Origin: Nannocystales bacterium | GTDB lineage: Bacteria > Myxococcota_A > Polyangia > Nannocystales > Nannocystaceae | Reading direction: 5' to 3' | DNA: 64,000 nt | Assembly: GCA_050633305.1 (NCBI GenBank) | Contig: JBOEGF010000018.1 | Span: 96,001 to 160,000 of the forward strand | Shown here: piece after piece, positions 31,477-31,675 of the stretch | Layout: the number at the start of each line of letters is the position of its first letter | Numbering within the stretch: the stretch's first letter is position 1 | Translations under genes and position numbers: made by a program | The notes under the pieces: model-generated | Seen by the model: only the letters and a program-made list of their open reading frames with translations | Told to the model about the DNA's origin: nothing | Databases searched by the model: none

Positions 31477-31505
31477 TTGACGATGTCCTGAGGCGGCACT
31501 AAACC
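31477..31505 (+). promoter_or_regulatory. Candidate sigma70 promoter
   Basis: TTGACG-17 nt-TAAACC, A-tract upstream; predicted start about 31512-31513 coincides with leader ATG. Confidence 0.55.
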
Positions 31506-31512
31506 CCAGTCC

Positions 31513-31599
31513 ATGTCGAGGCCAGCCAACACGTCCGAGTTCGGACGCAAGAACCACCCGCGCCGCCTTGGATGCGATGTGGTGGAGATGCTGGTCTAG
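31513..31599 (+). CDS. Candidate 28-aa attenuator leader peptide MSRPANTSEFGRKNHPRRLGCDVVEMLV
   Basis: ATG 31513, TAG 31597-31599; stop overlaps 5' strand of antiterminator. Confidence 0.55.
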   Translation: MSRPANTSEFGRKNHPRRLGCDVVEMLV

Positions 31600-31675
31600 C
31601 GGCTTGCCTGTCTCGTGGGGTCATTCCCACGCCTGAGACTCCGGTAGCCGCCCGACATCGTCGAGGCGGCTTTTT
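31599..31675 (+). terminator. Terminator (31646-31675) with overlapping antiterminator (31599-31651)
   Basis: AGCCGCC-CGAC-ATC-GTCG-A-GGCGGC-TTTTT; GCGGC-T-TGCC (31599-31608) pairs GGTA-GCCGC (31643-31651) around GTCTC/GAGAC and GTGGG/CCCAC. Confidence 0.75.

Follow-up and report, generated by a model that had tools for sequence, protein, structure and literature searches.

The 64,000-nucleotide stretch of DNA analysed here (the window, to which all coordinates refer) comprises positions 96,001 to 160,000 of contig JBOEGF010000018.1 from the Nannocystales bacterium assembly GCA_050633305.1 (Myxococcota, family Nannocystaceae), and it contains at 31477-31675 a short leader that precedes an array of tRNA-mimicking, Y RNA-like modules and the gene of a distant Ro60 homologue. 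We propose, with a probability of about 0.62, that this leader is a ribosome-dependent transcription attenuator that gauges the timely, end-to-end translation of a short leader open reading frame (ORF). The proposal is based on the geometry of the leader, on its conservation and covariation among relatives, on the coding-like composition of the reading frame, and on the behavior of the RNA in folding models. We infer, in addition, the site of transcription start, the translation of the ORF, the kinetic competition between two RNA structures, and the physiological signal to which the switch would respond.

The elements of the leader all lie on the plus strand. A promoter-like site read from the sequence (31477-31505) consists of a -35 box, TTGACG (31477-31482), a 17-nucleotide (nt) spacer, and a -10 box, TAAACC (31500-31505), and is preceded by an A tract at 31456-31461. 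A reading of the motif GGCAC as part of a sigma-54 promoter was rejected by eye, there being no -12 element at the right spacing. The ATG of the leader ORF (31513) stands 7 nt past the -10 box, and this proximity predicts a leaderless mRNA. The ORF (31513-31599) encodes the peptide MSRPANTSEFGRKNHPRRLGCDVVEMLV in 28 codons followed by TAG (31597-31599), and a Shine-Dalgarno (SD)-like GGAG (31584-31587) lies 13 nt ahead of the stop codon. The 5' strand of a putative antiterminator (AT), GCGGCTTGCC (31599-31608), takes the G of the TAG stop as its first base and pairs with the 3' strand GGTAGCCGC (31643-31651); the AT helix encloses an apical hairpin (31610-31639) whose sequence varies among genomes. 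Bases 31646-31651 are common to the AT 3' strand and to the 5' arm of an intrinsic terminator (31646-31675), which has an 11-pair stem (31646-31671) with one bulge and a 3-nt loop, followed by UUUUU. A second in-frame TAG (31645-31647), 16 codons past the stop of the ORF, falls on the terminator 5' arm; it is not conserved, being CAG in two related genomes (G002 and G001). A first-pass annotation made from the letters of the window had described a 28-codon ORF whose stop overlaps the antiterminator strand, a strong terminator, and a peptide of 16 amino-acid types. All three structural elements lie where it placed them, with stabilities above those of shuffled sequences, and the peptide does contain 16 residue types.

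The two structures that share these six bases are each more stable than expected by chance. Between the stop codon and 31652 the RNA forms one hairpin of -29.6 kcal/mol (z -3.87; equalled by 1 of 200 shuffles), the basal helix of which uses the terminator 5' arm, and the same stretch without its first 14 nt is no better than its shuffles (z -0.06). The terminator alone reaches -18.6 kcal/mol (z -4.50), a value that none of 200 shuffles attained. Pairing of the 16 nt after the stop codon with the terminator arm was bettered or matched by 29 of 1000 self-shuffles.

This arrangement recurs in relatives. Close orthologues of the von Willebrand factor type A (VWA) protein encoded downstream of the leader were found in eight related genomes among 40 relatives searched, and a species-level genome collection across Myxococcota yielded 49 loci for this protein. 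Of 72 genomes of the family, 11 have the terminator motif GCCGCCCG-N3-14-CGAGGCGGYTTT, each in a single copy that lies shortly ahead of the array and the VWA gene, and the reversed control gave no matches. A generic terminator scan of the 49 loci identified two more leaders, one in a metagenome-assembled genome (MAG) of the Polyangiaceae (L069) and one in a MAG of the Kofleriaceae (L031), which are unrelated in sequence and have the same layout. The resulting 13 leaders represent three myxobacterial families. In 12 of them (10 of the 11 within the family) a -35 box, its spacing, and a -10-like box are kept, the last in the variants TAAACC, TAGACC, TACACC, and TATACT within the family, TATCTC in L069 (TTGACA-N17-TATCTC), and TATAGT in L031 (TCGACA-N16-TATAGT). 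The ATG follows the -10 box by 7-16 nt in 12 of the 13, and the distance is fixed in six genomes of the genus. Every leader contains an ORF, of 12-33 codons, that ends at the same structural position despite insertions and deletions, with TAG as the stop codon in seven leaders, TGA in four, and TAA in two.

The position of the stop codon relative to the competing helix is kept throughout this set. The AT strand begins at stop+2 or stop+3 in all 11 family leaders; L069 has it at stop+2 and L031 at about stop+4. Conservation of the geometry between stop and antiterminator, a check on homologs suggested in the first-pass annotation, is thus seen in all 13 leaders, with the strand 2-4 nt from the first base of the stop codon. 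When the whole leader is searched for its best complement to the terminator arm, this complement lies between -3 and +2 of the stop in 10 of the 11 family leaders and is also stop-adjacent in L069, not in L031. Tested against 1000 shuffles of the stop-adjacent stretch, the AT duplex had 29 or fewer equals in 11 of the 13 leaders. Outside the invariant arm, the basal helix is maintained by compensatory changes (UCCGU:ACGGA, UCCGC:GCGGA, CUGCG:UGCAG, and UUGC:GCAG), helices being counted from anchored coordinates, as a MAFFT alignment of the stop-to-terminator stretch had misplaced the 5' strand. The apical hairpin and the body of the ORF vary freely in sequence and length.

The effect of a ribosome on this competition was modeled for all 13 leaders on a nascent transcript that runs from its 5' end through the first six bases of the terminator arm. 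In these folding models the AT helix has a probability of at least 0.89 in the naked RNA of 11 of the 13; a ribosome footprint with the stop codon at its centre lowers this probability to 0.05 or less in all 13, and a ribosome eight codons upstream leaves it at 0.94 or more in 11 of 13. For the full leader with a ribosome at the stop, equilibrium folding gives the terminator a probability of 0.99-1.00 in 11 of 11. An anti-antiterminator (segment 1:2 of a classical attenuator) was not found, pairing between the ORF body and the AT strand being no stronger than that of shuffled bodies in 11 of 13 leaders. Such pairing is far below that of shuffled bodies in G014, G066, G086, and G017, and exceeds the shuffled mean only in G005 and in L031, the exception that behaves as a four-segment attenuator. 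In the first-pass annotation the element had been read as a case of classical attenuation. The 13 leaders and the folding models agree with the architecture and the direction of switching that this implies, and the four-segment form does not hold, no anti-antiterminator having been found. For the same reason an untranslated leader should also read through, so that read-through would be the default state, and the switch would report a failure to finish translation in time rather than stalling alone.

These observations suggest the following course of events. Transcription would start at or beside the ATG at 31513, giving a leaderless mRNA. As the RNA emerges, the stretch from the stop codon to 31651 would fold as one long hairpin whose basal helix takes the first six bases of the terminator 5' arm; no terminator would form, and RNA polymerase would read on into the array of six tRNA-mimic Y-like RNAs and then into the Ro60-like gene and the partner gene beside it. 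A ribosome with the stop codon in its A site would cover the AT 5' strand, because that strand begins in the stop codon; the terminator would then form and transcription would end at 31675. The GGAG 13 nt upstream may help to hold the terminating ribosome in place. Efficient translation would in this way keep the locus off, and slow or stalled elongation, or failed initiation, would turn it on. Since no residue runs are conserved, the sensor would read general translation capacity, such as tRNA supply and ribosome function, and not one amino acid. The first-pass annotation had likewise favored a general sensor over one for a single amino acid, which fits the 13 peptides, across which no amino-acid or codon run is conserved. 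That the signal may be tRNA damage, as the first-pass annotation put forward, is suggested by context only, that is, by the tRNA-mimic RNAs, the Ro60-like protein, the related leaders ahead of tRNA arrays described below, and published links to stress: Rsr/YrlA/RtcB operons have been linked to tRNA damage (PMC7790460) and a tRNA array to translational stress (PMC8421152).

The proposed attenuator depends on translation of the ORF, for which base composition offers a measure. The G+C content at the three codon positions of the ORF frame (GC1/2/3) is 0.65/0.57/0.78 over 281 codons, and 0.67/0.55/0.76 in a non-redundant subset; two neighboring genes have 0.69/0.43/0.86 and 0.61/0.52/0.81, and the noncoding array is flat at 0.61/0.62/0.62. 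This coding-type composition supports translation of the leader ORF without proving it. ORF lengths differ by lineage (20, 24, 25, 26, 28, 29, and 33 codons), and the start and stop anchors stay in frame. The SD-like motif has a preferred position as well. In nine of the 13 leaders a GGAG or GAGG is found at -13 to -11 relative to the stop codon, only one other such site occurs elsewhere in the 13 ORFs, and the strongest complement of the leader to the anti-SD sequence falls at -12 to -18 in 11 of 13. The motif is independent of the reading frame, appearing as GAG GUG in most leaders and as GGA GGC in L069. From its spacing to the stop it follows that, with the stop codon in the A site, the motif would lie where an SD sequence pairs during initiation, and it may therefore tether the terminating ribosome over the AT strand.

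The same layout was encountered ahead of genuine tRNA genes. A metagenome scan for the terminator motif returned at least 80 loci with DNA. Among the matches listed, none of 80 loci has the Nannocystaceae-type promoter and no new Y-array leader appeared, and nine loci have 7-15 genuine tRNA genes downstream on the same strand and none upstream (L152:1440-3226, L105, L085, L116, L160, L120, L129, L141, and L099). The layout was defined, after the Y-array leaders had been seen, as an open frame of at least 12 codons, GGAG or GAGG 8-15 nt before a stop, and, next to that stop, a stretch that pairs with the arm at -15 kcal/mol or better. Among the matches listed, the full layout is present in five of the seven tRNA-array loci that have at least 120 nt upstream (L085, L105, L116, L152, and L160) and in none of 70 other loci that share this terminator motif; this is an association in a single retrieved set, and the five may be related to one another. 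This association ties the leader layout to tRNA or tRNA-like arrays and not to that terminator per se. In L152, for example, a GTG stands 7 nt past the promoter TTGACA-N17-CAGTAT, and the tail is GGAGG-8 nt-TAG-GGCGGUGG. A phylum-wide pattern search matched 2 of 401 Myxococcota genomes, one being that of the window itself, and the tRNA-array leaders therefore probably come from other taxa. These loci had no match in plasmid or phage collections.

The first of three alternative accounts is that the leader is a stand-alone small gene, giving a short mRNA or dual-function small RNA, that the array is transcribed through constant leakage of the terminator, and that the arm pairing is a stable 3' structure without a switching role. 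The leader does have its own promoter-like site and a strong terminator, and attenuator RNAs and leader peptides that act in trans have been reported (PMC7968998 and PMC7298713). Contigs from three metatranscriptome runs, all of one study, include portions of the array and of the protein gene and not the leader, so they give no sign of read-through; RNA libraries may hold DNA, and such contigs are uninformative on starts, ends, and read-through. We consider this account unlikely. The peptide of such a gene is not conserved, yet all 13 leaders keep the placement of its stop relative to the competing helix, and that helix is maintained by compensatory change. The first module moreover lies within 31-92 nt in 12 of 13 leaders, and the array would therefore depend on the leader promoter. 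The layout also tracks tRNA arrays (5 of 7 loci versus 0 of 70 among the matches listed). An RNA-only switch, set by a trans-acting factor such as the Ro60-like protein binding its own leader, a Y RNA, or a tRNA, would leave the ORF incidental. Competition between AT and terminator needs no ribosome in itself, the openness of the frame is not significant, and one leader (G017) has no ATG. The only places where such a factor could bind, however, are the apical hairpin and the ORF body, both of which vary freely, and TAG, TGA, and TAA alternate at a fixed position. Coding-like GC3 in the ORF frame, the constant spacing of ATG and -10 box in the six genomes of the genus, and the lack of any Rfam family matching the leader (best 18.2 bits, E 1.1) all count against this account too, and we regard it as improbable.

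A classical amino-acid attenuator, sensing arginine or valine, would fit the ORF of the window, which has the tandem codon pairs CGC CGC and GTG GTG; in Escherichia coli trpL, two tandem Trp codons suffice. Neither doublet is conserved in the other 12 leaders, the regulated genes are not biosynthetic, and an anti-antiterminator was not found, all of which make this possibility very remote. The statement in the first-pass annotation that there is no run of one codon thus requires correction for the two doublets, although neither is conserved in relatives.

Several observations weigh against the ribosome-dependent attenuator that we favor. A consensus scanner flagged neither the leader promoter nor the leader terminator in the window; the stem has a bulge and a 3-nt loop, and the -10 box TAAACC lacks the final T of the consensus. 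In G017 there is only a TTG start and no recognizable promoter. The leader peptides are essentially unrelated and so give no protein-level support. In DNA of 65% G+C an open frame of this length is by itself no evidence, the two remaining frames being likewise uninterrupted in 7 of 11 and 9 of 11 relatives, respectively. In the literature consulted, leaderless translation in Myxococcota is only suggested, by one paper (PMC12754779). The idea of ribosome anchoring was examined with a generic anti-SD probe that is not from this genome (the assembly of the window has no 16S gene). The AT duplex of G086 is no better than shuffles (270 of 1000) and that of L031 is marginal (65 of 1000), and in the nascent folding model the naked RNA forms the AT helix with probabilities of 0.00 in L031 and 0.26 in G018. 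For the full leader at equilibrium with a ribosome stalled upstream, the outcome is mixed and the terminator is still favored in several genomes; the switch therefore needs kinetic, co-transcriptional folding. Finally, a terminator scan of all 49 VWA-operon loci, with inspection of 12 upstream regions by eye, found no such leader in 38 of them. The leader-free loci include Myxococcus, Archangium, Cystobacter, and most Polyangiaceae, and several loci have CTGACA...TGTCAG inverted repeats upstream in place of the leader.

Ribosome-dependent attenuation is a textbook mechanism. Like the classical attenuators of the trp, his, and leu operons, the leader described here has a promoter-proximal short ORF and an intrinsic terminator, its antiterminator takes the terminator 5' arm, and a ribosome at the stop would block the antiterminator. 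Unlike them, it has neither a regulatory codon run nor an anti-antiterminator, it has a predicted leaderless start and an SD-like motif before the stop, and its regulated product is mainly noncoding RNA. Among the uORFs that respond to general translation stress are the leaders of vmlR in Bacillus subtilis (PMC9226507) and toiL in E. coli (PMC12121999), in which, as proposed here, a short uORF without amino-acid specificity couples ribosome stalling to downstream expression. The vmlR leader resembles ours in employing an antiterminator and an intrinsic terminator and differs in using an anti-antiterminator and in controlling an antibiotic-resistance ABCF protein (PMC9226507); toiL works through occlusion of a ribosome binding site and Rho (PMC12121999). 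In contrast to both, the ribosome at the stop would alone oppose the antiterminator in our leader, and the output would be tRNA-mimic RNAs and a Ro60-like protein. Leaderless polycysteine short ORFs have been described as attenuators in mycobacteria (bioRxiv 10.1101/834739), where likewise a leaderless first-cistron short ORF controls an operon; those ORFs are specific for cysteine, whereas no residue is enriched in the leader here.

With respect to the regulated genes, a close counterpart is the Salmonella rsr-yrlBA-rtcBA operon, which is reported to be induced by tRNA halves through RtcR and sigma-54 (PMC7790460), YrlA itself being described in PMC4201824. Salmonella encodes a Ro60-type protein beside tRNA-mimic Y RNAs, as this locus appears to do, and the tie of expression to tRNA damage there (PMC7790460) parallels the one suspected here. 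In Salmonella rsr precedes the Y RNAs (PMC7790460), whereas here a predicted cis-acting attenuator stands ahead of six Y-like modules; the resemblance of the protein to Ro60 is distant, and its RNA companions score below the Rfam YrlA threshold. The tRNA L-array of Anabaena is normally silent, comes on under translational stress, and is co-regulated with rtcB, a logic that equals the one proposed for the tRNA-array leaders L152, L105, L085, L160, and L116; its control is attributed to promoter direct repeats, and the words 'leader' and 'terminator' are absent from that text (PMC8421152). Among the papers that our literature searches listed, none describes an attenuator ahead of Y RNA genes or of tRNA arrays. 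We class the element as a variant of the known mechanism, pared down to two hairpins, that combines a uORF predicted to be leaderless with an SD-like motif near its stop and would control tRNA-mimic RNAs and, elsewhere, tRNA arrays.

The RNA array that the leader would control (31701-32775, plus strand) contains, besides six Y-RNA-like modules, a long hairpin that is present twice. The modules, at approximately 31701-31812, 31850-31990, 32002-32150, 32262-32388, 32402-32544, and 32653-32769, are each, judging by motifs and folds, a long stem with a conserved CACACGC-type 5' motif and a CACTCGG 3' motif. All except the first appear to enclose a permuted tRNA-like domain composed of a T arm, a closed acceptor-like stem, and a D arm, and two of these five also have an anticodon-like arm, with the loops CUCUUAA and UUGGGAA. 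Perfect hairpins of about 85 nt lie between modules at approximately 32162-32244 and 32556-32640 (z -4.83 for the first copy). ARAGORN called no tRNA in the window, and Rfam gave weak tRNA matches there of 33.3 and 32.6 bits. At a relaxed threshold Rfam also matched YrlA (RF02553) with 42.7 and 39.3 bits, below the gathering score of 69, and five related loci scored 33.7-43.8 bits; the cmscan alignments to YrlA, with scores below threshold, place the T arm, closed stem, and D arm. The first-pass annotation had named a promoter of the array's own as one of the findings that would tell against its proposal. The 5' motif of the first module lies 31-92 nt past the T tract of the terminator in 12 of 13 leaders, and its stem starts some 20-30 nt ahead of that motif (in the window about 26 nt past 31675), a gap too short for a separate array promoter that does not overlap the leader. 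The exception is L069, with 769 nt from T tract to first motif; the stretch between its terminator and its first Y module (L069:2950-3690) includes further short ORFs. ARAGORN calls a normal-order tRNA-Tyr(GTA) inside a Y-type stem at L031:3688-3762 and a tRNA-Arg(ACG) just before the Y modules at L069:3618-3693; real tRNAs and Y modules therefore share arrays.

Downstream of the array lies the gene for a VWA protein of 581 amino acids (32826-34571, plus strand) that we call a distant Ro60 homologue. In Pfam it matches VWA_2 only; TROVE (PF05731) gave no match to it even at E values up to 10, none anywhere in the 92%-complete assembly of the window, and none in 10 more distant representatives of the VWA family that were scanned. 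A profile comparison by hhalign with nine myxobacterial TROVE proteins reached 95.2% probability (E 2.5e-8, 312 collinear columns) with a diverse profile, and 82% with a shallower profile of the 581-residue family. The alignment takes in the vWA domain and, of the TROVE region, the C-terminal half, the N-terminal 190 residues being unaligned, and Atlas returned TROVE look-alikes at 0.91-0.92. PADLOC, PHROGs, and NCBIfam had nothing for this protein. On this sequence evidence the locus appears to be a divergent Ro60/Y-RNA system. The next gene (34577-35488, plus strand) encodes a conserved 303-residue partner protein for which Pfam, NCBIfam, PADLOC, and PHROGs hold no family and Atlas gave no usable match; a tblastn match to it lies directly downstream of the VWA gene in 46 of the 49 loci and elsewhere in the locus in two more. 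The two-gene operon (32826-35488; L025-L073) is widespread in Myxococcota, Myxococcus xanthus included, and its VWA gene is annotated merely as 'VWA domain-containing'. In M. xanthus (L035:2600-4000), L040, L051, L064, and L066 there are one or two Y-like modules and no leader attenuator, with the inverted repeats TTCCTGACA...TGTCAGGAA upstream, which may be the site of a regulator; in M. xanthus a gene for a calcineurin-like metallophosphoesterase lies between two Y-like modules.

On its upstream side, the leader adjoins an OmpA-family gene (30343-31326, plus strand; Pfam OmpA match), the terminator of which, a hairpin with a T tract at 31354-31395 on the plus strand (-24.3 kcal/mol, z -3.52), marks the upstream boundary of the unit; on its other side, about 1.1 kb are without long conserved ORFs. 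A contig of a related strain (run X5) has 2855 other letters between 31322 and 31455 and keeps 31455-31486, so that the promoter travels with the array rather than with the gene of the OmpA family.

When and why bacteria induce Ro60/Y-RNA particles, and why they keep extra tRNA arrays, are largely open questions. The leader could represent a widespread, undescribed class of 'translation watchdog', in which the SD-held terminating ribosome of a leaderless or nearly leaderless uORF is the sole block to antitermination, and which gates spare tRNA arrays and, in myxobacteria, Y-RNA arrays with a Ro60-like protein; we offer this generalization tentatively and hold it to be doubtful. If true, it would provide direct, cis-encoded feedback through which damage to tRNA or ribosomes, such as anticodon nucleases or antibiotics cause, acts on the supply of tRNA, on decoys, or on the quality control of RNA. 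The 200-nt leader is a simple handle that can be fused to a reporter, and a related operon, though without this leader, is present in the genetically tractable M. xanthus. The leader would also add a minimal design to the known attenuators, one with two competing hairpins only, the ribosome as the anti-antiterminator, a predicted leaderless start, and possibly an SD-like anchor. A sensor of translation capacity acting in cis before both kinds of array, if confirmed, would mean that Ro60/Y RNAs and tRNA arrays are a response to failing translation.

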